64,000 bases of DNA from a virus, in IMG/VR virus record IMGVR_UViG_2974600762_000001, positions 39,688 to 103,687 of that record; one strand, written 5' to 3'. The position numbers and the translations under genes are program-made. Below the pieces are notes generated by a model, which was not told the origin of the DNA, did no database searches, and was given only the letters and a program-made list of their open reading frames with translations. Position 1 is the first letter of the stretch. Every line of letters starts with the position of its first letter. Shown here piece after piece: positions 16,042-59,044 of this stretch.

Positions 16042-16071
16042 TTGACAAAGCATATCAGAAATGGTATGCTT
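16042..16071 (+). promoter_or_regulatory. hairpin-in-spacer promoter
   Basis: TTGACA AAGCATATCA gaaa TGGTATGCTT. Confidence 0.8.
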
Positions 16072-16096
16072 TTATTATAGAAAGAAGGAATAAAAT

Positions 16097-22883: not shown

Positions 22884-23984
22884 ATGAATAATACTTTTAT
22901 CCAAGAAAATTTTGATGTAGCCCCTGTTCAAGCAAACACTAATGCTAATAATGGGGTTAGTACCCAAGTAGACAGCTTAGAATTGACTGATGACAGTATT
23001 GCTAAGTTTGGCTTAGATGTCCAACGTGGCGTTGGCGAATTAACTAATGAAATCACTCAAAGTACCAAGAATAAGAATGCAGGGGAAACTGGCGAGGCAA
23101 TCACTGCATTAATGAAAATTATTCGTGAAAATGGCAAAGATGAAGACCAGGGCGGTAACATTATTACCCGTTTGTTCCGCAAGGGTAAGAACTCTGTATA
23201 TAATATCCAAGCTAAGAACCAAGCGGTAGACAAGTCTATTGACACTATTTCTGCCAAACTATCGGATTCCCAGACTGAGCTAAGCCATGACAACGAAACA
23301 CTGGACAAGATGTATGAACAGAATAAGCAACAGTTTCAAGCCTTGAATGAACTAGTTGATATTGCTCAGGATAAATTAAATGAGCTAGAATCGTCTATTA
23401 TTCCAGAGTTAGATAACTACATTAAAACAACTAAGGATGGCGAGGATAAAATTAATGAGGCTACAATTAAGCTTAATGAATACCAGAACATGCAATCAGC
23501 TTTGAGTCGTAAACTTAATAATCTAATTGCTTCTCGCCAACTAGCATTATTACGGGCACCTAAGCTAAAGACTTTAAAACAAACTAACTTAACAGTCATT
23601 GATAACTTACAGAGTTCGATTAACTTTGCTATTCCGCTATGGAAACAGCAAGCAGCCGATGCTATCTTGGCTAGTCGCCAACAACAGGCTATTGAGGTTC
23701 AGAAGTTCATGACTGAGCAGACTAATAAGATGATTGTATCTGGCGCCGATAATGTTCGTAAGGCTACTTTAGAAGCTCAAAAGCAGAGCAATGAATCCTT
23801 TGTATCTGCATCTAAATTAACTCAGGCTACTGATATCTTACGAGATACCCTTGTACAAGTACAAAGCTTACAAAAGCAAGGGGACTCTTTACGCAAGCAG
23901 GAAGCTAAGGACTTACTACAGTCTGGAGAACATATGAAAAGTGTAGCGTTAGACTTGATGAAGAATAACAAAATGATTGAATAA
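22884..23984 (+). CDS. telA: TelA/YaaN toxic anion resistance family protein
   Basis: I.KFG..VQ, L.HDN..L..MYE.N, L..RQ.A...AP.L..L..TN, IPLWKQQ motifs. Confidence 0.9.
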   Translation: MNNTFIQENFDVAPVQANTNANNGVSTQVDSLELTDDSIAKFGLDVQRGVGELTNEITQSTKNKNAGETGEAITALMKIIRENGKDEDQGGNIITRLFRKGKNSVYNIQAKNQAVDKSIDTISAKLSDSQTELSHDNETLDKMYEQNKQQFQALNELVDIAQDKLNELESSIIPELDNYIKTTKDGEDKINEATIKLNEYQNMQSALSRKLNNLIASRQLALLRAPKLKTLKQTNLTVIDNLQSSINFAIPLWKQQAADAILASRQQQAIEVQKFMTEQTNKMIVSGADNVRKATLEAQKQSNESFVSASKLTQATDILRDTLVQVQSLQKQGDSLRKQEAKDLLQSGEHMKSVALDLMKNNKMIE

Positions 23985-29260: not shown

Positions 29261-29455
29261 TTTTAAAAAATTTATGGGCGTGCTGGTGGGTGAGCAATGG
29301 GCGTGCTAGTGTTGTGCTTGATTGTGATACAAATACAGTTTTAACACCTTATATAGTAGGAAAAATAATTGAAACGATTTTAATAAAAAATGTTGACACT
29401 AACAACGCCTAGCTATATACTATAGTCATTCAAGTAAAGGAGAGGGCGCTACATT

Positions 29456-29653
29456 ATGAACGATAGAGAACCAGCACCAAGCAAAAAGCATAAGTTACCT
29501 AAATGGATAAAGTTACTATTATGGATTGCAGCCTTTTACATTCTATGGAATGCAGGCAAGATGATAGTTGTTTACATTCTATGGTACCCGGGACGAATGC
29601 TATTAATGATAGGGTTAGCGTTATTATTAAGTGGGCTATTCAATAGACACTAG
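29456..29653 (+). CDS. early small membrane protein
   Basis: Own promoter, SD GGAG, two hydrophobic helices. Confidence 0.7.
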   Translation: MNDREPAPSKKHKLPKWIKLLLWIAAFYILWNAGKMIVVYILWYPGRMLLMIGLALLLSGLFNRH

Positions 29654-29728
29654 AAAATAATAAAATAGATGTTGACATGATATGTAATTGATGATATTAT
29701 AAAATAAAAAGTAAAGGGGTTTTATACT

Positions 29729-29899
29729 ATGTTATTCTTTATCAAAATGGTTATTATTGGGGCAATTCTTGGGGGTGTCTTGGAAATTATTAAAGGGCTG
29801 ATTAATGCCATTGTAAAAAATGATGATACGGCTAAAACATTAAACGGGTATGTTACTGCAATCGGATGGCTTGTAATAATTTATGTATCTATCTTTTAA
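29729..29899 (+). CDS. early small membrane protein, 56 aa (not in ORF track)
   Basis: MLFFIKMVIIGAILGGVLEIIKG...; SD AAGGGG; promoter at about 29672. Confidence 0.6.
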   Translation: MLFFIKMVIIGAILGGVLEIIKGLINAIVKNDDTAKTLNGYVTAIGWLVIIYVSIF

Positions 29900-29905
29900 G
29901 GGGGT

Positions 29906-30208
29906 ATGATAATGATTATTAATAAAAGTAATACTGGAAATTTCAAGTTTCAATCCTATGACGGCCGAACATATAACCGGCCTAAAATTCTACACCGACA
30001 AGCCACAGAACTATATAATAGGGGCTTGCAGTACGTTTTAAGAGGTTTTAAACCTCTAAAGGATAACGGGGTTATAATTGCTTTCAATCCAACACCGGAA
30101 CAAGTAGTGAACTACGTTGATACTACTAATTATAGTAGCTACTGGCTAGAGATTGCACGGCCATTAGGTGGGAAAATCAAGGTTAAAAAAGTTTCATTAT
30201 ATGGTTGA
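29906..30208 (+). CDS. early hypothetical protein
   Basis: SD AAGGGG. Confidence 0.65.
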   Translation: MIMIINKSNTGNFKFQSYDGRTYNRPKILHRQATELYNRGLQYVLRGFKPLKDNGVIIAFNPTPEQVVNYVDTTNYSSYWLEIARPLGGKIKVKKVSLYG

Positions 30209-30266
30209 CTATAAAATAGTATAATGCTATGATACACATGTAACGTAATCAAGGAACAAAATAAAT

Positions 30267-30282
30267 TGTTTCACGTGAAACA
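30267..30282. promoter_or_regulatory. parS: parS site (ParB/Spo0J binding)
   Basis: TGTTTCACGTGAAACA, perfect match to TGTTNCACGTGAAACA, inside a 22-bp palindrome. Confidence 0.85.
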
Positions 30283-30303
30283 ATTGAAAGAAAGTGATAT
30301 ATT

Positions 30304-30711
30304 GTGAAATTTAAAGAATTTATGAACCATGGTAAAACTGAGAATGATATTAAGCAAGACATTTATAAGTATGGTAAACAATTGGATACGATTGGAAAGC
30401 CGGCAAACAGCTATATGCAATTATACAAGGTACAACAGTATGATAGCGGACGGCGGGCGGTGAACCTTGGTACTTATAACATGTATTTTAGAAACATTGC
30501 AGAACTAAACTTATATCGCAAACCCTTGGTCAAGTTAGTGAGTGATGGAATTGACTATGTGTTATATTTTCAGATTATTCAGCAGGCTATTTTAATGGAT
30601 AACAAGCGAAATGTAAAACTAGTAACAAAACCATCATTCTCGGACTTTTTGGGGGTTGATGATGATTTAACAAATTTATTTCAAAATACGCTTGACAAGT
30701 TGCGAGAATAA
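30304..30711 (+). CDS. early hypothetical protein
   Basis: GTG start, own promoter. Confidence 0.65.
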   Translation: MKFKEFMNHGKTENDIKQDIYKYGKQLDTIGKPANSYMQLYKVQQYDSGRRAVNLGTYNMYFRNIAELNLYRKPLVKLVSDGIDYVLYFQIIQQAILMDNKRNVKLVTKPSFSDFLGVDDDLTNLFQNTLDKLRE

Positions 30712-30750
30712 CCGTATGCTATAGTTATTCAAGTAAAGGAGGTTATAGAA

Positions 30751-30828
30751 GTGGCTACATTAAAATTAGTATTTATTATTGTAATTGCTATCTATGCTTA
30801 TAAAAAGTATAAAGACAATCAGAAATAA
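30751..30828 (+). CDS. 25-aa membrane peptide (MATLKLVFIIVIAIYAYKKYKDNQK)
   Basis: SD GGAGG, GTG start. Confidence 0.5.
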   Translation: MATLKLVFIIVIAIYAYKKYKDNQK

Positions 30829-30905
30829 AGTTTAAAAAGTTCTTGACAGGCTAGTAACTAAGGTATATAATTAAGTCATTAAACAAGAAAAGGAAGTTAT
30901 ACATT

Positions 30906-31175
30906 ATGAAAACTTTAGATACATTTGAATTACAACCACAGCTTGACAACGCACAATCATTCTACAAAAAGGCTTACACCTTGCATAATAATGACGGTAG
31001 TATTGATTTAAAGTCGTATGACACAATCGTAGCAACCTTTAAAGCTGGTATCATTACCGTTAACGACACGTATTCAGCTACCACGTTACGCCACATTAAG
31101 GAATTTATTTATCAGACTACTGGTGTTAGTGGATTATCTAAAAAGGATATTGAAAAGGATTACCAAGCAAACTAA
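30906..31175 (+). CDS. early conserved phage protein
   Basis: SFYKKA...LKSYDTIVA...YSATTLRHIKEF pattern; own promoter. Confidence 0.75.
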   Translation: MKTLDTFELQPQLDNAQSFYKKAYTLHNNDGSIDLKSYDTIVATFKAGIITVNDTYSATTLRHIKEFIYQTTGVSGLSKKDIEKDYQAN

Positions 31176-31257
31176 TAACTAATTCAAAATACTGGTTGAC
31201 AATCTGCAATAGATATGTTAAACTAATTATAACAAATAAAGAAAGAGGTTTTACATT

Positions 31258-31500
31258 ATGACAACAATTGATAACTTAGAGGATAACGCAATTACCTTAG
31301 TAGGTCGTTTGGTACAGGTTGACCAGTCTCTCGATGAGTACGCTGGCATGATTGGCCGTGTGCTAAAGCCGGATAATCTTGAAAATGAGGTTATCGTTGA
31401 CTTTACTGATAGTCCTTTTGTTAATGCACAAGTTAAGGGTGAGTACCTTGGTGAGGTTAGTGAACAGGTTATGGACTTGTTTCCCCTTGATGAGCTTTAA
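31258..31500 (+). CDS. early acidic small beta-barrel-like protein
   Basis: Own promoter, SD GAGG. Confidence 0.7.
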   Translation: MTTIDNLEDNAITLVGRLVQVDQSLDEYAGMIGRVLKPDNLENEVIVDFTDSPFVNAQVKGEYLGEVSEQVMDLFPLDEL

Positions 31501-31596
31501 AAATATGTATTGACAGTAATAACTAGACATGATACTATTAAAGAGTACCAAGATGGTAACAGAACAGAAAAACATTTAACCTTAGGGGGTTATATT

Positions 31597-31899
31597 ATGG
31601 CCGCACATTTCAGCGAATTAAATTCTTTAATTGACCTTTTGTATCATAACAACGATGTTATTGGGGACACTAAGGTAACAAGTATTCATAAAGGTAGTTT
31701 CAATGAGTATGAGGGTTACCAGTATTGTATTGGTATCAAGATTGTTACACTACCTAAGTTTAAAAACAAGCAATTTATGTGGGACACCAATTCAACATAC
31801 ATTTGTGATTTTCTACCGGATAAGGACTTAACGGAAAAGGGAGAAAAAGAGTTTATCATTGACGGGTTACAAGATGTGTTTGCAAGTGCCTTAGACTAG
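31597..31899 (+). CDS. early hypothetical protein
   Basis: SD GGGGG before ATG 31597. Confidence 0.65.
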   Translation: MAAHFSELNSLIDLLYHNNDVIGDTKVTSIHKGSFNEYEGYQYCIGIKIVTLPKFKNKQFMWDTNSTYICDFLPDKDLTEKGEKEFIIDGLQDVFASALD

Positions 31900-31926
31900 C
31901 AAGACCCGTGGGATAACTAGTATAAA

Positions 31927-31942
31927 TGTTTCACGTGAAACA
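31927..31942. promoter_or_regulatory. parS: parS site
   Basis: TGTTTCACGTGAAACA. Confidence 0.85.
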
Positions 31943-31976
31943 TTACTTGATAAAATAAATTAAGGAGATTTTAAAA

Positions 31977-32225
31977 ATGAAATTAGAAAAAGCAATTGAA
32001 CTATTACAAGGTGATACTTTTGACATGGAAGAAGCATTCTACTCTGAATTGGGTGGTGACGTAACTGCTGAATATATGCTTACAGTAACTGACGCTGAAA
32101 CCCTTATTAATGAACTTGAAATTGACTTATCAAGTATTGATGATTATAATGCCCTACATGATGAGGTTGAAGAGAGTTTGTATGATAACATGGACGGCGG
32201 TGTTGACGGTGTAAGCCGGGATTAA
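31977..32225 (+). CDS. early highly acidic protein
   Basis: 24 D/E versus 3 K/R in 82 aa by hand count; SD AAGGAG. Confidence 0.75.
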   Translation: MKLEKAIELLQGDTFDMEEAFYSELGGDVTAEYMLTVTDAETLINELEIDLSSIDDYNALHDEVEESLYDNMDGGVDGVSRD

Positions 32226-32234
32226 AGTGTAAGG

Positions 32235-32262
32235 GGCTAGCTTAATAGGCTAGTCTTTTTTA
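32235..32262 (+). terminator. intrinsic terminator; near-identical copies at 36966-36993 and 37761-37786
   Basis: G(G/A)CTAGC-ttaatag-GCTAGTC plus T-run. Confidence 0.85.
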
Positions 32263-32472
32263 TTATCTGTTTAACGTCAATACACGCCTATACTTTCAAT
32301 TCTAACTGTGATTATAGCTAGTTATACTGGATTAGCTTAAAACGTCTTAAAACGGCTTATATGGCCTTGTAGCTGTATAGCAAAATAAACTAAATTATTT
32401 TGATTTAGCTGTTGACAGCTATGGATAATATTGTTATACTTGGTTTATTCAATAAGGAGAGGTCGTTATACA

Positions 32473-32607
32473 ATGATTATTATCAGCATGGAAACATTGC
32501 CTAAAATTATCGAACTAGCACTTGCAGTCTACGGGGGTATCAAACTAGTTGACAAGTTGTTCCCTAGTATTAAGCAATCAAAATTCTTTCAAAGTTTTTT
32601 CAATTAA
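32473..32607 (+). CDS. early 44-aa peptide (not in ORF track)
   Basis: Promoter 32412, SD GGAGAGG. Confidence 0.55.
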   Translation: MIIISMETLPKIIELALAVYGGIKLVDKLFPSIKQSKFFQSFFN

Positions 32608-32670
32608 ACTATTGACATTTAAATTCACTGAGCCTATAATTAGGTTATTAAGTAAAGAGAGGTTATTATC

Positions 32671-33099
32671 ATGAAAATGGATATTACATTAAACATTGAA
32701 TTATACAAGGACGGCACGGTTATGCTAGATAATTGCAGTAGCGAACGGACTTATGAGAGTGGTACAGTTAAGTTCACGGGGACAATTGATGGGCGGCGCA
32801 AGACCTTTAACCCTATGGAAACAATGGAAAAAGCAGGACTAGTTACCACCAAGCACGATGAGAGTATGTTCCCTGATTATAAGGCTACTAGCAAGCTATA
32901 TAAGGCGTTTAATAGCACCGGCTTAGTTTTAGGCTTTACAGATAATATCAGCACTAGAGAACGCTTAAATAGCATTATAAAGGAAACTGGTGTAAGCCAA
33001 CAGCAAGCATTCACGAATTTAAAGAATGCAGGCGTTATAGCTGTAGCGGACGCATACCAGTTAAGTGATAAAGAATTAAAAACAATTATTTTAAAATAG
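32671..33099 (+). CDS. early hypothetical protein
   Basis: Own promoter, SD GAGG. Confidence 0.7.
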   Translation: MKMDITLNIELYKDGTVMLDNCSSERTYESGTVKFTGTIDGRRKTFNPMETMEKAGLVTTKHDESMFPDYKATSKLYKAFNSTGLVLGFTDNISTRERLNSIIKETGVSQQQAFTNLKNAGVIAVADAYQLSDKELKTIILK

Positions 33100-33165
33100 T
33101 TGTTGACAGACTAGCAACTAAGGTATACAATTAAGACATTAAATAAGAAAAGGAAGTTATACATT

Positions 33166-33555
33166 ATGGCAACTAAAATTAGTGAATTAGAAAGCCTTAC
33201 ACAGAAGCACTTTGATACAATCATTGACCTAGCTAACAGTTTTAAGGATAACAACCCTTACAAGCAAGAGTTTGTCAGTCATTTATTATATGATTACTTG
33301 TATGACGTTAACGCTATTTGCCGTGAAACAACAGTACAAGAGACTGCTGAGCGGTTAGGCGGATTGCGGGCGTATAGACAAGCCCTAGCGTTTGACCTAG
33401 AACATTTAGATTTAATCATTAAAATTGCTAGTCGGGTATTTGATGATAACCTTGATAGTATCATGAGCTACTCTAATAACCCTACGGAAACCATAGACAT
33501 TACACAAGACTATTTAAACGACTTTTATGAAATTTATAACGAATATTTAAAATAG
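33166..33555 (+). CDS. early hypothetical protein
   Basis: Own promoter and leader. Confidence 0.7.
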   Translation: MATKISELESLTQKHFDTIIDLANSFKDNNPYKQEFVSHLLYDYLYDVNAICRETTVQETAERLGGLRAYRQALAFDLEHLDLIIKIASRVFDDNLDSIMSYSNNPTETIDITQDYLNDFYEIYNEYLK

Positions 33556-33620
33556 TTGTTGACAAGTTAGAACATTATTGCTATAATTAAGACATTAAAT
33601 AAGAAAGAGGTATTTACATT

Positions 33621-34130
33621 ATGGGATATACAGATGGAGTAGCAAAATCAATGAGTGAAGCAAGTGCACAAGGTAAGCTGTTTTTAATTGACAGCTTTAC
33701 TTACAAGGATAGCAATTACAACCCTGATGACTTGGACGGTGAAGCATTATCAGACTTTTTAGACCAAAAAGTGGACTTAGATTATACCGATTATGTTGAG
33801 TTGCTTAGAGATGGTTACGCTTATGACGGTGAAAGTAATGAGATTAACTTAACCGAAAATAAAGATGGCTTTACAGTCAATGTATATCAATCTGCATTAG
33901 CTTTTATTGATGATAATAGTCAAGGCGGCCTGTATTATATCTTTGATGAAACTAAAGAATTGTTAGGGGCTAGAATGGGTGTTTGTGGTGAGCATATTGG
34001 AAGTGTTTCAGTATGGCTAGACACTACGACCCCACAAGCTACCTTAACACAAGGCAATGAGGTTTATCACTTAACTAGTGAAGATACTGATGATATTAAC
34101 GAGGGACTAAGCGAATTGTTTTATGATTAA
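33621..34130 (+). CDS. early acidic protein
   Basis: Own promoter, D/E-rich. Confidence 0.7.
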   Translation: MGYTDGVAKSMSEASAQGKLFLIDSFTYKDSNYNPDDLDGEALSDFLDQKVDLDYTDYVELLRDGYAYDGESNEINLTENKDGFTVNVYQSALAFIDDNSQGGLYYIFDETKELLGARMGVCGEHIGSVSVWLDTTTPQATLTQGNEVYHLTSEDTDDINEGLSELFYD

Positions 34131-34227
34131 TTTAAAATAAGTTATAAAAAGTCTTGACATAGAATAGCAGTAATGTTATTCTATATACATAAGTTAAAAC
34201 AATAAATAAGAAAAGAGATAATACATT

Positions 34228-34500
34228 ATGAAAACTGTTAATAAAGCATTGTTTACTGATGAGACGGGCCGCACGTATAGCCAGACCTTTTATGACTTAC
34301 AAGACGAAGCTGAGGGCTTAGCTATGTTACAGCACTATACAGGTACTGAAGACGAAATAGATGAGCAAGAGAATGAGTATGCTTTATCTTATTTATCTGA
34401 TTGTTATCGTGCTTGTGAAAACGTGCCAGAAATCAATGAAGATGAGTGCATTGATTTTCATCAATGGCTTGATTGGTTGCAATATGGTTATTTTAAATAA
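34228..34500 (+). CDS. early acidic protein
   Basis: Own promoter, D/E-rich. Confidence 0.7.
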   Translation: MKTVNKALFTDETGRTYSQTFYDLQDEAEGLAMLQHYTGTEDEIDEQENEYALSYLSDCYRACENVPEINEDECIDFHQWLDWLQYGYFK

Positions 34501-34571
34501 AATAACCATTGACAAGTTAAGACATTACTGCTATAATTAAGACATTAAATAAGAAGAGGAGTTAATACATT

Positions 34572-34889
34572 ATGAAAACAGTAAAAGTAGCAAACAACAT
34601 GCAGTTATTTGATGATGACGGTTACCACTATAACAGGTGCTTAACTCTTGATATTAAGTCATTTAATAAATTCTTGACCAATATTAACCAACTTTTACAA
34701 CACGAAAAGGGCTATTCTAGTGATAGAACTTGGCTAGAATGCTTGCCTACCGAGCAACTAGAAAAGGGTATCTTAACACTCACCTTAACGCAAGCACGGT
34801 ATCTAATTCAGTGGTTAAAAAGCAATGGTTATGTTTTTAAAGGACACAAAATTAAAAGTGAAGTAAACACGGTTGTAAAATTATTTTAA
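34572..34889 (+). CDS. early hypothetical protein
   Basis: Own promoter, SD GAGGAG. Confidence 0.7.
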   Translation: MKTVKVANNMQLFDDDGYHYNRCLTLDIKSFNKFLTNINQLLQHEKGYSSDRTWLECLPTEQLEKGILTLTLTQARYLIQWLKSNGYVFKGHKIKSEVNTVVKLF

Positions 34890-34960
34890 GATAATTGTTG
34901 ACAAGTTAGAGATTAAGATATATAATTAAGACATTAAATAAGAAAAGGAAGTAATACATT

Positions 34961-35254
34961 ATGACAGCAAGTGAAAAATTAGTAGAATTACTTGAAAACG
35001 ATAAATTGACTGACGACCAATTAGACAACTTGAACAGCTGGGGTATTCTAACCGTGTCAGAGTTGAGAGAGTATCTAATTGACTTAATTAGTGAATTGAA
35101 AAATGAAGCTATTAGTGTTTCATATGAAGAAGCTGTTTGTGCATTATCTGATTTACTTGATTATAGTGATGATGGTGAGTATATCATTTATGATGAAACT
35201 GGTGTAACTAAATTAGATTTTGATACCTTAGATGACGTTTTAGATGTTGATTAG
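34961..35254 (+). CDS. early highly acidic protein
   Basis: About 27 D/E versus 5 K/R in 97 aa. Confidence 0.75.
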   Translation: MTASEKLVELLENDKLTDDQLDNLNSWGILTVSELREYLIDLISELKNEAISVSYEEAVCALSDLLDYSDDGEYIIYDETGVTKLDFDTLDDVLDVD

Positions 35255-35270
35255 AGAAGAGAGAACTAAA

Positions 35271-35639
35271 ATGAAATTATATAAATTATTGATTACTATT
35301 GTTGCCGGGGTTACATTGTCCCTAGTTACTGCATATAAGGCTGATGCTAGCCGGCCTAATTATGCGTATACCTTAACACGGACTAAGCACGCTGTTAAGC
35401 TTACCAATACCGGACGAACTGAAAACATGTACCGCGTAACGGTTAAAACTGGAAAAGCTGTAAAGTGGTATTATATGGCGCTAAACGCTAAACAGTCATG
35501 GACGGTGAAACAGCCTAACAAGTATAGCGTTACTGTTCGGCGGGTTTCTAAGAATGATGAGAAGCGCAATGCAGACCCGCGCAATCACTTTACACCAGTA
35601 GGAATCCGTAGCACTCAACGAACACTATGGAATCGTTAG
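35271..35639 (+). CDS. early basic secreted protein
   Basis: Signal peptide MKLYKLLITIVAGVTLSLVTAYKADA; K/R/T-rich mature part. Confidence 0.65.
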   Translation: MKLYKLLITIVAGVTLSLVTAYKADASRPNYAYTLTRTKHAVKLTNTGRTENMYRVTVKTGKAVKWYYMALNAKQSWTVKQPNKYSVTVRRVSKNDEKRNADPRNHFTPVGIRSTQRTLWNR

Positions 35640-35663
35640 AATAGAATAATTGGGGGAATTTAA

Positions 35664-35948
35664 ATGAAAATTAATGACAACCATAATGATGACTGGAAAC
35701 TCGGGGCTGTTTTATATGATAATATTTCTAAAAATTACTATTTAATTGCAAGCTACAAGCACGAAATAGGATTAGTTAATTTAAAAAGCGGGATTTCTAT
35801 GCTATCTCATACTCATGATGAATATCGTGCTATCATTAGCTCGGATAGTTCCAATAAAAACGTGGTAAAGCAAATTTTGAAACATCACAATGGAAAAGAA
35901 GATTTAGTTAAAATTGACAGTGCTTGCTTGCATATTTATTGTATGTAA
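35664..35948 (+). CDS. early small beta-domain protein
   Basis: WKLGAVL...YYLI...IGLVNLKSG pattern; SD GGGGG. Confidence 0.65.
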   Translation: MKINDNHNDDWKLGAVLYDNISKNYYLIASYKHEIGLVNLKSGISMLSHTHDEYRAIISSDSSNKNVVKQILKHHNGKEDLVKIDSACLHIYCM

Positions 35949-35991
35949 GCTATTAGGTATTACATTAAATAATAAAAGGAAGTTATATATT

Positions 35992-36246
35992 ATGAAAAAG
36001 CAAGACGCATTAGACGCACTAGACGGCATGACTTATTTATTAGGGGACGTTGCATTCTCTGACGCACTTGGGCGTGATGTCAACTTTGAGTACACTGGAT
36101 ACGTAGACGAACCACAAGCGTTATTAGATTGTTTAGGAATTGACTATAATAACTATGAAAGTGAATCCGAGTTGTTAAACGCTGTGGAAAGTGCTGTTGA
36201 TGATTGGGATATTTCAGAACGGTTAGACGGTATGGAACTAGCATAA
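35992..36246 (+). CDS. early acidic protein
   Basis: SD AAAGGA before ATG 35992. Confidence 0.7.
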   Translation: MKKQDALDALDGMTYLLGDVAFSDALGRDVNFEYTGYVDEPQALLDCLGIDYNNYESESELLNAVESAVDDWDISERLDGMELA

Positions 36247-36263
36247 TTGGAGGAATTTAAAAA

Positions 36264-36434
36264 ATGGGATTTACTGAAGCTTTAACAATTGTATTTGTAG
36301 TATGTAAGTTATTAGGTATTATTACTTGGTCATGGTGGCTAGTATTATTACCTGAAATTATTGCCGGTGTATTTTATCTACTGTTTTTAATTGGTTTTGT
36401 TGGACTATCTATATGGGCAATTTTTAGAGATTAA
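36264..36434 (+). CDS. 56-aa phage membrane protein (not in ORF track)
   Basis: LTIVFVVCKLLGIITWSWWLVLLP motif; SD GGAGG. Confidence 0.7.
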   Translation: MGFTEALTIVFVVCKLLGIITWSWWLVLLPEIIAGVFYLLFLIGFVGLSIWAIFRD

Positions 36435-36509
36435 TTAGGTAAAAGGGGTTGACAGCTATAACCTAGTTTGCTATAATTAGGTTATTCAATCGAAAAGGGG
36501 ATTTTAAAC

Positions 36510-36947
36510 ATGGAAAATATTGAACTGAAAGACAATTTTGAGGATTATGTAGTTAACGAATTGGTGAATAAGCTACATGAAGTGAAACCAGAAGACTATG
36601 AAAGCCTTAATGGTGAACCTATTGATGTTGATGAGTTACTTGATATGTTACTTGAAGACGAATACGAAAATGGCTGTTACTACATTTATACCAAAGACAG
36701 CGAAAAGGTATTCAAAAAGTATTTCAAGGATATTTTATACATCTGTAATACTTTTGGGTATACTGATGGTTTACCAATTGAACTGGAAGCAAGCAATCTA
36801 TTATTAACAGCTATTCACTATGTTTTTGAAACCTTGCTGGAAACAACCGTAACATCTTACACCAAGTTTACCCGTGCTGGTCTTGATATGATTGCCGACC
36901 GCATTGCTGGTATTATTCATGATAACCTTACTCAATTGATTTACTAA
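36510..36947 (+). CDS. early acidic helical protein
   Basis: Own promoter, SD GGGG; D/E-rich. Confidence 0.7.
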   Translation: MENIELKDNFEDYVVNELVNKLHEVKPEDYESLNGEPIDVDELLDMLLEDEYENGCYYIYTKDSEKVFKKYFKDILYICNTFGYTDGLPIELEASNLLLTAIHYVFETLLETTVTSYTKFTRAGLDMIADRIAGIIHDNLTQLIY

Positions 36948-37061
36948 TTATGATAAGTAACTATGGACTAGTCTATCATGGCTAGTCTTTTTTGTCTATT
37001 GACAATCCATATAAAGGCTGGTATACTTTAATTATTGAGAAACAAGTAAATATCTCAAAAA

Positions 37062-37077
37062 TGTTTCACGTGAAACA
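37062..37077. promoter_or_regulatory. parS: parS site
   Basis: TGTTTCACGTGAAACA, 15 nt upstream of the -35 box at 37092. Confidence 0.85.
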
Positions 37078-37153
37078 ATTTAAAATAATGGTTGACAAGT
37101 TAGGATATAGGGTATATACTTAGGTCATTAAATAAGGAAAGAGGAATTACATT

Positions 37154-37735
37154 ATGAAATTAGAATTAAACCTTAAAAATCAGGACGCTTACACCGTTGA
37201 GGATATCCAAGCTAGTATGTTAGTTTTAGCCGGTGAACTTGGTAAGCTTGGCTACTGCTTAGATGGTCTATCATATAATACAGATACCCCGATTAACGGA
37301 TTACCACTTAAAAACGCCCGTGCTGATAAGCGTTTAAGCATTGAATCCAACCTAGATAAAAGCTTTGTTTACTCTGATAATAGGGAAATAGAGACGATAA
37401 CCATTGATGCAACGGCGGCCGGTGTTAATACACGTTTAGTTACTCTTGCCTACGTAAGATATAACCGCATGTTAACGACCAACTTTAGTTATGCTGTATC
37501 TATGGTTGAAAAGATTGCAAAGCGCCGACACAATCGCTTTAGCTATAGTAACCGCCGGCGTATTCCAGTTACCAAAAGCAATGTAAAATTAGTTCGTGGT
37601 ATTAAAGGATTTAAAACAGCTAAATTAGATGATATTGCTTTATATGTTTCTGATTTATGGGACATGGATAGCAAGCGTTATACACTGGAAAACATCAAGA
37701 CAGGAACTGAAAAGACCTTTACTTTAAACCGATAA
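37154..37735 (+). CDS. early basic hypothetical protein
   Basis: Own promoter, SD GAGG. Confidence 0.7.
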   Translation: MKLELNLKNQDAYTVEDIQASMLVLAGELGKLGYCLDGLSYNTDTPINGLPLKNARADKRLSIESNLDKSFVYSDNREIETITIDATAAGVNTRLVTLAYVRYNRMLTTNFSYAVSMVEKIAKRRHNRFSYSNRRRIPVTKSNVKLVRGIKGFKTAKLDDIALYVSDLWDMDSKRYTLENIKTGTEKTFTLNR

Positions 37736-38658
37736 AACAGGATTAATCAAGATATTTATGGACTAGCTTAATAGGCTAGTCTTTTTGTATGGTCATTAAA
37801 TAGCATGTATATAAGCCATGTATAGACAGTTACGTATATAGGGGTAGTATAGGTGCATATATAGGTAGTAGGCAATACAGGGGCAATATACATTAGTAGA
37901 CACTGTATGGATATACGTTAACGGGTAATATGCTTAGTAGCCTAAGGTTCACCTATCTTACTAATAATATTACAGTATACAGACAGCCTAGTTACTTGAC
38001 CGACTAACCAATCACGTATAATGGTAGCTGATTACTTAATCACTGTACTAACTAACCAATATGCAATTGTATCGTGCTGGTTTATATCAACTTATTATGG
38101 TTACACATATAGGCTACCTATATACGGCTTATATATGGGCGTGTAGTAATAGTTAGTCATATATAGGTGTAATTATACTGGTATCCATATAAACGGCTTA
38201 GAATGGCTGCTAGGGGCTTATATGGGAATCCTGTATTGGTAGCCTATTACTGCATACAAAAATAACCCTATATACTTTCATATAGGGGTTGACCAGTGGC
38301 TATATACATGTTATAATTAGTTATACAATAAAAGAGGGGGTAAAGATAAAACTACATAGTACGGTCAACATGGCTACATAGTCCAAAAGCCTTACTAGTT
38401 CTGTACGGGGAGTGTATACTTTTTTAAAAATTAAGACTAGACTTCCCTAATCATATCCGGTATAGCTTAGACCGTGTAGCTGTGGTGCTGTCACTATTAA
38501 GTTGTTATTAACCTCCTTTACTTTATATATTAAGTATACAGCTATATAGGGTAAATGTCAACCCTTTTAGCAAATTAAATAAACTTAATTTAGGGGTTGC
38601 ATTCTATGTCCTATCTTGGTATAATTGGGTTATTCAATAAGGAAAGAGGAATTACATT

Positions 38659-38913
38659 ATGAAATTAGATAGCAACGTATTAAGCATATTAATTGATAGA
38701 AAGGTCATTCGCTTTATTGCTCAACCTGATAAGGACGGTTTCAGTAAAGCGGTGGTCGTTAGCCCGTTTAGTCATTTATACTCAGTAGAAAGAGTAAGCA
38801 GTTTTGAACCTTGTAGCAGTATTACTAATAATAACGTTATTTTAGACGGGGTTACTAAGGAGTATAAAACCCTTATGGCTTATCTTAAAGCTAATCAATA
38901 TGAGGCTTTTTAG
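38659..38913 (+). CDS. early hypothetical protein
   Basis: Promoter TTGCAT..TATAAT, SD GAGG. Confidence 0.7.
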   Translation: MKLDSNVLSILIDRKVIRFIAQPDKDGFSKAVVVSPFSHLYSVERVSSFEPCSSITNNNVILDGVTKEYKTLMAYLKANQYEAF

Positions 38914-39104
38914 CCTAATTACAGCTATACCAATTCTAAAATAGGTCAATACTCACCATAGGCTACATCGACTATAAACGCCGGTATAATAGCATTCTTT
39001 AAAATAAAGGTAAAACTATACCAATTTATTTTAAATAGTGGTTGACAAGCTAGGGTGTAGGGTATATAATTAAGACATTAAATACGAAAAGGAAGTAATA
39101 CATT

Positions 39105-39428
39105 ATGATTTTAACAAGTGAATTAGATACAGTAAGTAGCATTAACGAAGCATGGTTACGGGAATCACTAGAACGGGAAGCACGTTCTATCAATGAACAC
39201 ACTGATACCCATATGGAAGTTTATAATAACAAACCTAACCACTTTACAGTAGTAGTTGATGACATGTTTGAATACATGTTAGACACCACCGACTACACCG
39301 CCGAGCTAACGCAACACGTACCAACCTTTCAAGATGAGACTTTACTGGTGGCCGTTGTTGATGATAGTGATACCTTTGAAGATGAACTGGCAATCATGGT
39401 TATCAGCGCTGTTTACAAAACACTATAA
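39105..39428 (+). CDS. early acidic protein
   Basis: Own promoter and leader. Confidence 0.7.
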   Translation: MILTSELDTVSSINEAWLRESLEREARSINEHTDTHMEVYNNKPNHFTVVVDDMFEYMLDTTDYTAELTQHVPTFQDETLLVAVVDDSDTFEDELAIMVISAVYKTL

Positions 39429-39649
39429 AGCAATTAGGGTTATCCATTGGGGTAGCCCTTTTATATACATCCGTCTATACACCATTATAAGCTTGTTACA
39501 GGCGTTTTATATTAGGGGCAGTATAATTACACTAGGTATAGTATAAAACGCCTTACAGGGCTTGTATGGACGTTACAGGGGTATTGACACCACCATTATA
39601 CTATGTTATGCTATATTAGAGTTGAAAGCAGTTGAAAGGCGGTACAATA

Positions 39650-39910
39650 ATGACTAATCATAACAAGCAACAACAAGCATATGCAACACCAGTTAAGGAC
39701 AAGTTACGGCTATTAACGGGTAAAGTTATCACGCTTAATACTGATGACACTAACTACCCAGTTGAATTTGTTGAACCATTGCTATTTTATATTGCTTATG
39801 GCTTACCTGATAAACTAGACACTAACACATTGACTAGCTATTTCAATCAACACTATACCAAGGGTACACCACTCAATAAAGTAGGATTGCACTTGGTTAA
39901 CCCCCACTAA
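39650..39910 (+). CDS. early hypothetical protein
   Basis: TTGACA promoter at about 39584, SD AGGCGG. Confidence 0.55.
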   Translation: MTNHNKQQQAYATPVKDKLRLLTGKVITLNTDDTNYPVEFVEPLLFYIAYGLPDKLDTNTLTSYFNQHYTKGTPLNKVGLHLVNPH

Positions 39911-40187
39911 GCTATTTAAAAAAGATTACTAACTAACTGGATTCTATCCGGATTTATTAGTAATCTTTTTGAATTATTGACCCGGCGAAACATATAAGAT
40001 TAACGCTGCGTACTATCACGGTGGTACACGGGTAGCCGTATCCTATCACGGGAACACGGGGTGCAATCGCAAGCCACCAACGAACTACTGAATAGGTAGG
40101 ATACACCGCCGCCACGTTTCAATGCTGACTATACCACAAATATAAAATAGGCGCAACCGGCAAAATTATTTAAAGTGTTGTCATTGG

Positions 40188-40318
40188 TTCAATGGTAGAC
40201 TGATTCAGTATCGAACTAGTTTAGGCTGTGTATTATATTGCCGTACTGGTTCACTGATGTATTAATTCAATGGTAGACTGATTCAGTGGTGAACTAGTTT
40301 AGCTAGTGTACCATATTG
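40188..40318 (+). repeat. two imperfect 53-nt direct repeats, period 78 nt
   Basis: TTCAATGGTAGACTGATTCAGT(ATC/GGT)GAACTAGTTTAG at 40188 and 40266. Confidence 0.85.
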
Positions 40319-40590
40319 AATCCCGCTAAATTTATTCAAAATACTTTAATAAACTGATTGACACGGCTTATTTTTTATGCTTTTCATTTTAGGCTCGATT
40401 GTGGGTAAATACACCGGGTATCCTTAAAACGGCTTAGAGGGGCTTATATGGCCATATACGGGGTATTGACAATTTGAACCAGTTGTGCATCCGTTTATAC
40501 AAAATATTTTGAGTTTATCCCCTTATATAGTAGTATTTAGTTTCCTTATATGGTATATTTAAAGAGTAGAAAAACAAGGGGGTTACTTAC

Positions 40591-40905
40591 ATGACAAAAG
40601 ATGAAATGGAAAGCTTATTTATTGATGACGGTATCGAACTAACTGACAACCTCGGTCAAGCTATTTATCTATTCAATAACGGTATAATGATATCCGGCGA
40701 ATACTGTGACGGGTTTCGTGGTACTGACCACCGTACGTTATTAGATGAGTTAGATAACTCGGCAACGTATGAGGAACTACACCAAAATTATAGGGTGGCT
40801 CGGCTAGTTCCTGAAAGTATGACGGCGCTGGTTAATGGCTTACAACTTGACGCCGATAAAATAGACATGTTAAAAGAGTACGGGTATACCATTGAAAATT
40901 ATTAA
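40591..40905 (+). CDS. early hypothetical protein
   Basis: SD AAGGGGG. Confidence 0.7.
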   Translation: MTKDEMESLFIDDGIELTDNLGQAIYLFNNGIMISGEYCDGFRGTDHRTLLDELDNSATYEELHQNYRVARLVPESMTALVNGLQLDADKIDMLKEYGYTIENY

Positions 40906-40986
40906 ATTAATTTCAATTAGGTGCTTGACAAGGATATTCTAATTCGTTATACTTAAGTCATTCAATAAGGAAAGGGCGTTATATAC

Positions 40987-41286
40987 ATGACAAAATACAC
41001 GAAAACAGAAGGCACACAAGAAATTTGGGACGCTTTAGATGATTTCTATGACTATGATTCGCTTGCAATTCGACCCGAGGTTTACAACGAGGACGGCGAA
41101 ACATTTATATACTTGAACTTGGTAATTCTAACAAGTGAGAATATTTATTCCTTTATAGAGGGTTTAAGTGTAAGTGTAGAATTAGGCCGGTACGACAACG
41201 ACGACGACGAAACCGAGGCACGGGCTTATAAGAAAGCAATGAAAGCCGCCAGAGAGTTCGATATTCATGTAACCGAGCCGGCTTAA
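40987..41286 (+). CDS. early acidic protein
   Basis: Own promoter, D/E-rich. Confidence 0.7.
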   Translation: MTKYTKTEGTQEIWDALDDFYDYDSLAIRPEVYNEDGETFIYLNLVILTSENIYSFIEGLSVSVELGRYDNDDDETEARAYKKAMKAAREFDIHVTEPA

Positions 41287-41354
41287 AATTAGTGCTTGAC
41301 ATGTTTCACCGTGTTCGTTATAATTAAGTCATTCAATTGAGAGGGGTTTTATAC

Positions 41355-41696
41355 ATGATTAAATTAAGCAATAGCATTAAAGTTTTAGTACCAGAAACGA
41401 ACAATGACGGGGTAAAGGTTGACCTATCTTCTGAGATTTCAGCAGCGGTCAAGGTTATCGGGGGTGCCACCACCTATGCGGCTCGGGGTAATTGGGTCGA
41501 AAAGGATAAGCTATACACTGATAACATTAACGTGGTACACTTCAATTGTGATGAGTTCGATAAGGATACCACTCGGGTCATTAGTGACCTAATTCGTGCA
41601 ATTTTCATCAAGGCCGAACAACTAGCCGTGAGCGTGGAAATTAACGGGACGCTTTACATTTTAGATTCATTTGACGATATTGAAGAATTATTCTAA
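41355..41696 (+). CDS. early protein with GGAT...G.W motif (possible ferredoxin-like/DUF3574-type fold)
   Basis: IGGATTYAARGNW; SD GAGGGG. Confidence 0.6.
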   Translation: MIKLSNSIKVLVPETNNDGVKVDLSSEISAAVKVIGGATTYAARGNWVEKDKLYTDNINVVHFNCDEFDKDTTRVISDLIRAIFIKAEQLAVSVEINGTLYILDSFDDIEELF

Positions 41697-41791
41697 TTAG
41701 TTATTGACGGATACTAACTCAATATAGTAGTATTAAAGAGTACCAAGTTGGTAACAGAACAGCATTCAATTAAAAAAGGGGTATATACATT

Positions 41792-42127
41792 ATGAACAAG
41801 ACAGTTTTAACTTTAATCGAACGGGCAAGTCGTAAAGGCGTGGCAAAAGCATATTCATACCGGGGATTTTACGGTGAACGTCAGCACGTTGAAAAGTACC
41901 GAGTAACTACCGAGGGCGGCAAGTGGTATCTATATCATTATGAGACATTGACGGCAACCGTGACGAACGGCGTTGGTAAAGTGGTATACGGTGAAAGCCG
42001 TTCAGACGTTGATTCAATTGAAACATTTTTGATTGAACTAACGGGACACACACCGGAATTACATTTTTACCCGTCACGGGGCGTCTTTCAAGTGGTAGAC
42101 GGTGACAAGGTAATGCAAGAATTTTAG
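41792..42127 (+). CDS. early hypothetical protein
   Basis: SD AAGGGG. Confidence 0.7.
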   Translation: MNKTVLTLIERASRKGVAKAYSYRGFYGERQHVEKYRVTTEGGKWYLYHYETLTATVTNGVGKVVYGESRSDVDSIETFLIELTGHTPELHFYPSRGVFQVVDGDKVMQEF

Positions 42128-42142
42128 AAAAGGGGTTACATT

Positions 42143-42373
42143 ATGAAAGTGAATAAAATACGATTCAATGAGGATTTTTCAAGTGAGGCCAGCAACGGCA
42201 AGGCCGTGTTCTCGGCTAGTGTTAACGGCCACATGGTCGGGACGTTTCAATTTTTAGCGGGTATGATTGTCTTTACCTCATTAGATGATAGCGTCCGAGG
42301 TAACGCCGTAACGGTTGAGTATGATGACACTAGACAATTAGTTGATGACCTTAAAGCAATGAAAATAGACTAG
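42143..42373 (+). CDS. early hypothetical protein, last + strand gene
   Basis: SD AAGGGG; terminator follows. Confidence 0.7.
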   Translation: MKVNKIRFNEDFSSEASNGKAVFSASVNGHMVGTFQFLAGMIVFTSLDDSVRGNAVTVEYDDTRQLVDDLKAMKID

Positions 42374-48775: not shown

Positions 48776-48834
48776 ATTAAACGCCTCTTTCTTTTCTATA
48801 ATAAAATTATATCATATATGACATGCTTTGTCAA

Positions 48835-51622: not shown

Positions 51623-51653
51623 GCAACTACCCTTCTCCCCTTTTCTATAATAA

Positions 51654-51683
51654 AAGCATACCATAGTTGATATGCTTTGTCAA
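51654..51683 (-). promoter_or_regulatory. hairpin-in-spacer promoter
   Basis: Minus strand TTGACA AAGCATATCA acta TGGTATGCTT. Confidence 0.75.
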
Positions 51684-57901: not shown

Positions 57902-58240
57902 TTATAAAGCTAAGCATACTTTTAAAGCATGTTCCATCTTACTTTCTTCCTCTTTGCTAATATGACCAATATATTCAACTAAATCAGCTTTATTAACGGT
58001 AACAATAGCTTCAGTTAGCCCCAAACTTTTCTTAGGTGTTTCTGTGACAATAAAGTGTGTTGGCAACGGAACTTTGTGTTGGGTCGTTAGTGGTACTACA
58101 ATTGTGTTGGGGCTATGCAGGTTTCCTAAATTATTTTGCACAACTACACAAGGCCGTCTCCCAGATTGGATATGGCTCCATGATGGTTGTTCTGGTAAAT
58201 TAATGTAGTAAATATCCCCACGTTCTAAATCGTTATTCAT
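57902..58240 (-). CDS. mazF: MazF/PemK-family endoribonuclease, no adjacent antitoxin
   Basis: RGDIYY.NL, QSGRRPCVVVQN..GN.HSPNTIVVPLTT, E.I.TV.K..L..YIG motifs. Confidence 0.9.
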   Translation of the reverse strand: MNNDLERGDIYYINLPEQPSWSHIQSGRRPCVVVQNNLGNLHSPNTIVVPLTTQHKVPLPTHFIVTETPKKSLGLTEAIVTVNKADLVEYIGHISKEEESKMEHALKVCLAL

Positions 58241-58271
58241 TATGATAACTTCCTTTCTTTTTCTATAATAA

Positions 58272-58301
58272 AAGGATACCATTTCTGGTATCCTTTGTCA
58301 A
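58272..58301 (-). promoter_or_regulatory. hairpin-in-spacer promoter of mazF
   Basis: Minus strand TTGACA AAGGATACCA gaaa TGGTATCCTT, perfect 10-bp stem. Confidence 0.8.
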
Positions 58302-58304
58302 CAC

Positions 58305-58484
58305 TTAATCGTGAGTTTTTTCATCGTCAAGCTCGTGTTCCATATTATCTATGTCTTCATAAGCATCTTCAAGTTCACTATTTAGAGAATCATTTTCTTC
58401 CTCTAGTTCCTCCACTCTTTGTTCCAAATAATTGATGCGGTCATACATCTCCTGATTACTTGAGAATGGTTCCTTATTGTTCAT
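58305..58484 (-). CDS. small acidic coiled-coil protein
   Basis: RINYLEQRVEELEEENDSL; SD AGGAG. Confidence 0.6.
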   Translation of the reverse strand: MNNKEPFSSNQEMYDRINYLEQRVEELEEENDSLNSELEDAYEDIDNMEHELDDEKTHD

Positions 58485-58528: not shown

Positions 58529-59044
58529 TTATTCTTTGGAACATTCACAAAACCGATACCCGCCGTGTGTTTTTCTTCCTCCTCTTAAACAAGCACTTAT
58601 TTTTGAAGCATTAAGACCAAGTTTTCTTGCACAATCATGAACTCCAGAGTATTTAGTCTTTTTATTATCTTTAATTGCATATATCTCTCTCTGTGGGAAT
58701 CTTTTATTTCTTTCTTGTTCTAACTTGTTAGCCCATCTTAGATTAGATACTCTGTTATTGTCCTTGTTTCTATCAATATGGTCAACAGTTTCCTTGCTAT
58801 CTGGATTATCAATAAAAGCTATAGCAACTTGCCTATGAACGGTAACGTTTTTTGCTACGCCATTTTTATACAGTGTTACCATATGATACCTTCCAGTTGT
58901 GTCTTGTAATAGTATTTTAGACTTAATAGTTCTAATACCGTTTCCTCTTGTCTTTACATTTCTAGTAATTGACCTAACACGTCCAAAACTTGACACTTCA
59001 TAATTTGAATAGCCTGCTATTGGTTTCCAAACTTCTTCTTCCAA
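58529..59044 (-). CDS. NUMOD4-HNH homing endonuclease
   Basis: EEVWKPI.GYSNYEVSSFGRVRS, VHR.VA.AF, VDHIDRNK.NN..SNLRW, C-terminal NUMOD1-like HTH; TTG start with GGAGG. Confidence 0.9.
   Translation of the reverse strand: MEEEVWKPIAGYSNYEVSSFGRVRSITRNVKTRGNGIRTIKSKILLQDTTGRYHMVTLYKNGVAKNVTVHRQVAIAFIDNPDSKETVDHIDRNKDNNRVSNLRWANKLEQERNKRFPQREIYAIKDNKKTKYSGVHDCARKLGLNASKISACLRGGRKTHGGYRFCECSKE

Follow-up and report, generated by a model that had tools for sequence, protein, structure and literature searches.

The genome segment analyzed here (hereafter, the window) comprises 64,000 nucleotides (nt) of a viral record from IMG/VR (IMGVR_UViG_2974600762_000001), corresponding to positions 39688-103687 of a 142,567-bp phage genome that has direct terminal repeats and was judged complete. 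It belongs to a Lactobacillus (Lactiplantibacillus) plantarum herellevirus near Semele and Bromius (Herelleviridae, Harbinvirus), and its early region shares 88-92% nucleotide identity with the L. plantarum myoviruses Semele, Bromius, Bacchae, Iacchus and Dionysus, the match to phage LP65 being more distant. The region also occurs in public metagenomes and metatranscriptomes of relatives, whose contigs reveal neither ends, strands nor cleavage sites. Two features of the window are considered together: a block of early genes (29450-42145), many of which carry the pentamer TACAT (UACAU in the RNA) at their start codons, and a separate gene encoding a homolog of the MazF/PemK endoribonuclease toxins. 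An earlier note on this DNA connected the two, proposing that MazF would cut early messages at UACAU, between the Shine-Dalgarno (SD) sequence and the AUG, and would thus end early translation in the way of phage T4 RegB.

All 16 occurrences of the word that the note had placed at early starts were confirmed (13 as TACATT-ATG and three as TACATG, at 40588, 40984 and 41352, where each ATG indeed opens an open reading frame (ORF)), and every one of them precedes an ORF of 65-193 amino acids (aa) with an SD. The string TACATTATG is present in 13 copies in the window, each on the plus strand and at a start codon within 29450-42145, as compared to 1.2 +/- 1.1 copies in dinucleotide shuffles of the same sequence (none of 100 shuffles reached 13), and the whole genome contains the same 13 copies and no others. 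Based on our own gene calls for the whole genome, TACAT falls within -9..+2 of the start in 16 out of 29 early-block genes but in only one of the 151 other genes (Fisher p 3.7e-14), in agreement with its claimed absence from starts outside the early region. Similarly, the hexamer at -6..-1 is TACATT in 12 of the 28 called early genes and in none of 119 others; a one-letter variant, TATATT-ATG, stands at two more early genes (31591 and 35986). The word is thus concentrated at early starts and missing at later ones, as the sites of a RegB-type nuclease would be, and the same distribution is seen in the related phages Semele and LpeD. It is anchored to the AUG rather than to the SD or the promoter.

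Thirteen of the 16 sites are part of repeated sigma-A promoter-leader cassettes (TTGACA-17-TATAAT followed by a leader of ~30 nt), and a part of the motif repetition therefore reflects cassette homology. On the other hand, TACATT is constant although the 2-5 letters that separate it from the SD differ among the copies, one site (42137, gene 42143) is promoter-less, and two more (40588 and 41786, genes 40591 and 41792) lie in a second, unrelated type of cassette common to L. brevis phage 3-521, which makes repetition alone an insufficient explanation. The second type, found at 40520-40590 and 41715-41790, consists of TACTATTAAAGAGTACCAAG.TGGTAACAGAACAG and then an SD; it also occurs in 3-521 (133200-137560), the remaining early regions of both phages being unrelated. 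Two other explanations of the word were tried and rejected: an extended SD, with the spacer pairing with the 3' end of 16S rRNA, because the word is fixed to the AUG while its distance from the SD varies, and, as the principal explanation, a DNA operator, because the distance from promoter to word ranges from ~30 to ~55 nt, or the promoter is missing.

The gene at 57902-58240 was correctly recognized as a MazF homolog: its product matches PF02452 (E 4e-21; 75.6 bits against a cut-off of 23.1) over profile positions 1-107 of 109, and its best relatives in the PDB are B. subtilis EndoA, S. aureus MazF and related chains, with 37% identity to EndoA (4MDX). Its residues R29 and T52, invariant in eight phage and metagenome homologs, align with Arg25 and Thr48 of EndoA, which Simanshu et al. 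are said to have described in 2013 as the catalytic residues of B. subtilis MazF. The claim that no recognizable antitoxin accompanies it also stands, as neither a MazE/AbrB (PF04014) nor a ribbon-helix-helix (PF01402) domain was found in the complete genome, adjacent and co-transcribed or elsewhere; for want of an antitoxin, the gene does not form a type II toxin-antitoxin module. It has, as had been suggested, a predicted promoter of a separate class, located between mazF and an upstream ORF of 59 aa and composed of TTGACAAAG, a hairpin of 6-7 bp and TTTTATTATA. Four exact copies of this class are present in the window (0.05 expected), none of them serving an early-block gene. Its TTGACA stands further from the A/T box than a normal sigma-A promoter would allow, and the same element also precedes the LP65 genes at 119536 and 8749.

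Comparison with relatives showed clustered copies of TACATTATG in Semele (11) and LpeD (8), all at early starts, and both phages have mazF. Neither mazF nor a UACAU leader set was found in LP65, LfeInf and Listeria phage P100, so that the check suggested in the earlier note, whether relatives without mazF also lack the leader, was answered in the affirmative for these three phages, the cassettes shared with LP65 notwithstanding. In fact LP65, a phage of the same host species, shares the promoter-leader cassettes, even at orthologous genes, with the spacer GATCTTAAAC instead and a single gene with TACATC, and the sigma-A leaders of LfeInf and P100 end in TTAAAC- or AATATTA-type spacers. In LP65 the cassettes that carry TACATT here read GGATC(T/C)TAAAC-ATG (128531-131387 and 692-1305), and the TTAAAC-ATG ending of LfeInf also occurs at window gene 36510. 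Phage 3-521, which does have mazF, uses an unrelated early leader of ~55 nt ending six times in GGAGGT-TACATA-T(T/C)-ATG, i.e. with the canonical hexamer set three letters further from the AUG (the distances observed overall are -3, -6 and -8). That three genera retain the pentad, although their leaders are not homologous and its distance from the AUG varies, favors a recognized word over spacer geometry.

The same pentamer is avoided in the rest of the genome. When synonymous codons were shuffled within each gene, preserving both the protein and its codon usage, sense-strand TACAT was strongly depleted in the non-early genes of this phage (48 seen vs 115 expected, z -8.3; 36 vs 93 in an initial run with another gene grouping). 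With T runs and GATC-containing words set aside, it ranks first in depletion among the 1024 pentamers; no comparable depletion affects any of its 15 one-letter neighbors, and its reverse complement has a normal frequency. A depletion confined to the sense strand and to this word argues for a pressure that acts on RNA and is specific to UACAU. The early coding sequences show no depletion (13 seen vs 12 expected). As to GATC itself, the 142,567-bp genome has zero copies, as do LpeD, 3-521 and Maenad, while Semele and P100 have one each, LP65 218 and LfeInf 320; further strongly depleted hexamers (CTGAAG, GAATTC, AGTACT and ATCGAT) resemble restriction sites.

The sixth base of the site complicates the picture. 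The earlier note had taken UACAU as the cleavage site of B. subtilis and S. aureus MazF, which agrees with the pentad core; however, the canonical Bacillota site is reported as UACAUA, the B. subtilis and Listeria enzymes being described as requiring U^ACAUA and S. aureus MazF as slightly more relaxed (bioRxiv 10.64898/2026.08.06.743204). On the sense strand this hexamer is nearly eliminated from the present phage (3 seen vs 28.8 expected), Semele (3 vs 31.9), LpeD (0 vs 25.6), 3-521 (5 vs 34.3) and the L. plantarum siphovirus Maenad (2 vs 9.2), but also from LP65 (1 vs 28.6), LfeInf (2 vs 18) and P100 (4 vs 40.9), which have no mazF. Its reverse complement is normal in the coding sequences of the phages tested. 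In the depletion ranking of non-GATC hexamers UACAUA takes places 2nd-13th in five of the seven phages ranked (32nd in LfeInf and 146th in the smaller Maenad), the other top-depleted hexamers being obvious restriction sites and homopolymers. A family-wide Pfam search gave a strong PemK/MazF match in 380 out of 401 Lactobacillaceae genomes; in one of them (3.24 Mb) the gene order is acpS-alr-gap-mazF and the encoded MazF matches B. subtilis EndoA with E 4e-51. Since UACAUA is avoided with or without a phage mazF, the avoidance is most readily explained by escape from the host enzyme, and lytic Bacillota phages in general appear to evade host MazF in this way.

The hexamers found in the leaders behave differently. 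For UACAUU and UACAUG taken together, the observed-to-expected ratio is 0.61 in this phage, 0.61 in Semele and 0.53 in LpeD, vs 0.85 in LP65, 0.76 in LfeInf, 0.82 in P100, 0.80 in Maenad and 1.08 in 3-521; the gap between the three leader-bearing phages and the five others corresponds to a z of about -2.4 by a rough conditional test. Within the three phages the early coding sequences have no UACAUA at all (0 seen vs 9.4 expected) and a full complement of UACAU[C/G/U] (31 vs 25.8), while in non-early genes the latter is reduced by half (138 vs 270). The early genes being free of UACAUA, and the other hexamers being purged only later, would fit a UACAUA nuclease that is constantly present and a second, broader one that appears after the early phase.

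The features discussed above and the neighbors of mazF are listed in Table 1. In Harbinvirus, Elpedvirus (LpeD) and Watanabevirus (3-521) alike, mazF lies a short way upstream of the helicase gene, with possibly one small gene in between; the encoded proteins of LpeD and 3-521 are 66% and 42-44% identical to that of the present phage, respectively, and the Semele/Bacchae protein is 96-97% identical. The acidic protein encoded on the other side of the mazF promoter is kept in Semele (87%) and LpeD (65% over 40 aa). A profile search gave no match to an antitoxin family, solely coiled-coil noise, and the protein is a possible candidate for an unconventional inhibitor of phage or host MazF. A gene for an HNH/NUMOD homing endonuclease resembling I-HmuI lies two genes upstream of mazF (58529-59044, minus strand), a position taken in Semele by a PnuC-like transporter gene. 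The mazF coding sequences of this phage and Semele each contain one UACAUU, at nt 34 (Tyr-Tyr-Ile; 58203-58208 of the window, minus strand), and the mazF leader of 3-521 has UACAUA just ahead of the AUG (23932-23945), which suggests a possible self-limitation of the nuclease.

Table 1. Start-codon sites of the UACAU word in the early block, and mazF with its surroundings (window coordinates).
Feature	Position	Strand	Remark
TACATT-ATG, 65-aa early gene	29450..29458	+	behind sigma-A-type promoter
TACATT-ATG, 89-aa early gene	30900..30908	+	consensus promoter 30843-30871
TACATT-ATG, 80-aa early gene	31252..31260	+	
TACATT-ATG, 129-aa early gene	33160..33168	+	
TACATT-ATG, 169-aa early gene	33615..33623	+	orthologue: TACATT in LpeD, TACATC in LP65
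TACATT-ATG, 90-aa early gene	34222..34230	+	
TACATT-ATG, 105-aa early gene	34566..34574	+	
TACATT-ATG, 97-aa early gene	34955..34963	+	
TACATT-ATG, 193-aa early gene	37148..37156	+	
TACATT-ATG, 84-aa early gene	38653..38661	+	
TACATT-ATG, 107-aa early gene	39099..39107	+	
TAC-ATG (UACAUG), 104-aa gene, second cassette type	40588..40593	+	orthologous LP65 cassette: GATCTTAAC
TAC-ATG (UACAUG), 99-aa early gene	40984..40989	+	
TAC-ATG (UACAUG), 113-aa early gene	41352..41357	+	
TACATT-ATG, 111-aa gene	41786..41794	+	leader type common to L. brevis phage 3-521
TACATT-ATG, 76-aa gene	42137..42145	+	no own promoter; 10 nt past previous stop
mazF/pemK homologue, 112 aa	57902..58240	-	PF02452 profile match
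mazF promoter: TTGACAAAG, hairpin, then TTTTATTATA	58264..58301	-	class distinct from early promoters
Copy of mazF promoter class	16042-16079	+	
Copy of mazF promoter class	48797-48834	-	
Copy of mazF promoter class	51646-51683	-	
Very acidic coiled-coil protein, 59 aa (22 D/E, 4 K/R)	58305..58484	-	ends at mazF promoter

The best reading of these observations, to which we assign about an even chance, is a RegB-like shut-off of early genes by a MazF-family nuclease. UACAU located 2-5 nt ahead of the AUG would be the cleavage site of a single-strand-specific MazF-family endoribonuclease. The early genes would be transcribed at once from their consensus sigma-A promoters and translated; MazF activity would then accumulate, most likely that of the antitoxin-less phage MazF, expressed in the replication module from a different promoter class and acting alone or jointly with the chromosomal MazF of the host. 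A cut at U^ACAU would part the SD from the coding portion of the message and leave a 5'-OH, and the early messages would lose translation and decay, while the middle and especially the late ones would be spared because UACAU has been purged from them. The presence of UACAUU or UACAUG in place of UACAUA would shield early messages from the strict enzyme of the host. We infer a phage MazF that cuts UACAU(U/G), is produced later than the early genes and, by cleavage in vivo, ends their expression; within the shut-off reading, odds of roughly three to one favor the phage enzyme over that of the host as the one responsible.

The proposal of the earlier note is thus upheld in part. The motif, the MazF homolog, the missing antitoxin, the separate promoter class, the pattern in relatives and the purge all speak for it, and it is partly supported, in a stronger form, by two independent sequence signatures. 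A number of observations weigh on the other side. The leaders of this phage carry UACAUU or UACAUG and not the reported strict site UACAUA; LP65, LfeInf and P100 avoid UACAUA equally strongly; and the phage protein is just 35-37% identical to the characterized UACAU(A) enzymes. The long genes of LP65 are also low in the other UACAU hexamers (0.53 vs 0.44 in this phage), and the host enzyme, or the expression level, accordingly explains a part of the purge, which is in large measure host-driven; together with the avoidance of UACAUA in all eight phages, this makes the host and phage enzymes inseparable as its cause. The mazF-bearing 3-521 shows no purge of UACAU[C/G/U]. A helicase tree places LP65 and LfeInf between 3-521 and the LpeD/Harbinvirus clade, so that the joint absence of mazF and motif amounts to one or two events, in the right direction and of little statistical weight. 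Maenad, whose MazF is 39% identical to that of the present phage, lacks such an early leader, and the mazF-bearing Enterocloster phage CB473P1 and Thomasclavelia phage TR-TP1 show no excess of TACATNATG over a reversed control; hence a phage MazF is not always accompanied by the motif. Within the early block itself, five of the 18 promoter-proximal genes are without the word, and the UACAU site falls inside the stretch that an initiating ribosome covers.

If cleavage does occur, it might be performed by the host: we consider it distinctly unlikely that the cutting is left to an alr-linked chromosomal MazF, activated by the decay of MazE once the phage has shut down host transcription, and that the phage MazF instead carries out host shut-off with some other specificity or interferes with the host MazE-MazF pair. 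The wide occurrence of MazF in Lactobacillaceae, including the EndoA-like protein of the acpS-alr-gap-mazF genome, is in line with this possibility, as are the near-loss of UACAUA from eight phages with and without mazF, the avoidance of other UACAU hexamers in LP65 long genes, and the early leaders of 3-521, which carry exactly UACAUA. However, the leaders of the present phage, Semele and LpeD never do, and strict enzymes reportedly spare UACAUU and UACAUG (bioRxiv 10.64898/2026.08.06.743204). Moreover, the early coding sequences avoid UACAUA as if they had been made immune to the host enzyme, and the hosts of LP65 and LfeInf bear a MazF, yet neither phage has such a leader. A different possibility, which we regard as rather unlikely, dispenses with cleavage: UACAUU-AUG would be the operator of a RegA-like repressor lying over the start codon, or a favored initiation context, and its match to the MazF pentad would be coincidental. 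Initiation is favored by A/U-rich unstructured spacers, and the leader of phage T7 gene 10 likewise ends in UAUACAU-AUG. The fixed position of the motif relative to the AUG in this phage also resembles that of RegA operators (PMC3014915). Yet none of the 119 non-early genes, including any late or highly expressed gene, uses TACATT; the same cassettes hold TTAAAC-type spacers in early genes of LP65 and LfeInf, 3-521 keeps the word at a different distance from the AUG, and the later genes have, independently, been cleared of this pentad, for which a repressor does not account. A search for the RegA family (PF01818) gave no match in the genome, and none in the control genomes either.

The motif might also be without function, having spread with duplicated cassettes or replaced an ancestral GATC-containing spacer in the course of the GATC purge. 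The location of 13 of the 16 sites within homologous cassettes is compatible with the former, and the presence of GGATCTTAAAC at the same place in LP65, in view of the GATC-free genome studied here, with the latter; nevertheless we find this quite improbable. In two genera TACATT has stayed the same amid diverged flanking spacer letters; both cassette types carry the motif, as does a gene devoid of a promoter; the pentad is kept in the unrelated leader of 3-521; and a single point change would suffice to abolish GATC. Finally, a cut at U^ACAU(G/U) would shorten the leader to 2 nt in three genes and 5 nt in 13, and such nearly leaderless messages might still be translated, in which case cleavage would alter how they are translated and not abolish their translation. 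A comparable leaderless-message model has reportedly been proposed for E. coli MazF. That model is contested in work cited in PMC7781912, and 5 nt with a 5'-OH, as expected at most sites, make a poor leaderless substrate, so that we see very little chance of its being correct here.

Returning to the RegB-like shut-off, a more specific version of it can be formulated as a code involving two nucleases, in which UACAUA is avoided by all messages, and the UACAUU and UACAUG leaders are cut only by a phage MazF tolerant at the sixth base. We put this version forward tentatively, as possible rather than probable. Were it true, a toxin homolog would act as a developmental timer that ends the early program and shuts off the host, the late genes would be immunized by purging, and the acidic 59-aa neighbor may set the delay.

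Among known systems, T4 RegB is functionally the closest. RegB, an enzyme with a RelE/YoeB-like fold, cuts GGAG in early translation initiation regions (PMC3014915, PMC1702504). Common to both cases are a phage-encoded sequence-specific endoribonuclease of toxin-like ancestry (a candidate one here), a short word present in many early initiation regions, and the escape of later messages; the inactivation and faster decay of early mRNA, documented for T4 (PMC3014915, PMC1702504), is proposed here. In contrast, RegB cuts GG^AG inside the SD, needs ribosomal protein S1 and is itself the product of an early gene, whereas the present candidate is of the MazF/PemK type, its word is located downstream of the SD and ahead of the AUG, its promoter is of a non-early class, and the later genes are protected by genome-wide purging of the word. 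Being of MazF/PemK type and not a homolog of RegB with its RelE/YoeB-like fold, the candidate could work like RegB without being a member of its family. T4 RegA shares with the present case a short A/U-rich element at or just ahead of the AUG of many prereplicative genes (PMC3014915), but RegA operators are degenerate while the word here is exact.

With the chromosomal MazEF systems (EndoA/NdoA) the phage protein shares PF02452 and the conserved catalytic Arg and Thr, and the leader word is the same as the core pentad of the B. subtilis/S. aureus site (PMC7781912; bioRxiv 10.64898/2026.08.06.743204). It differs by its 35-37% identity, by the lack of a MazE partner and by its location in the replication module of a lytic phage, and the leaders have U or G, not A, as the sixth base. 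In the temperate B. subtilis phages phi3T and SPbeta (AimX, YosL) the fate of phage transcripts is likewise set by MazF (PMC10769878; bioRxiv 10.1101/2023.04.27.537455). These phages, on the other hand, have gone the opposite way, being reportedly enriched in UACAU and neutralizing MazF with inhibitor proteins, while the lytic herelleviruses examined here purge the site, and some of them encode a MazF of their own. We found no earlier description of the motif or of a role for a phage MazF in the literature, and the paper describing the genomes of Semele and its relatives (PMC6669764) mentions neither MazF nor the motif.

If the RegB-like shut-off is true, this would be the first lytic phage that uses an antitoxin-stripped toxin of the MazF family as a switch from early to later expression, and a Gram-positive counterpart of T4 RegB derived from a different nuclease family. 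It would also provide a function for the genes annotated as "MazF-like growth inhibitor" in many Lactobacillus phages, as well as a simple sequence rule by which similar circuits could be recognized, namely a site in early leaders and its purging elsewhere. Lytic Bacillota phages purge the host MazF hexamer UACAUA from their messages, which suggests that MazF exerts a real selection pressure on phages, and a widespread one.

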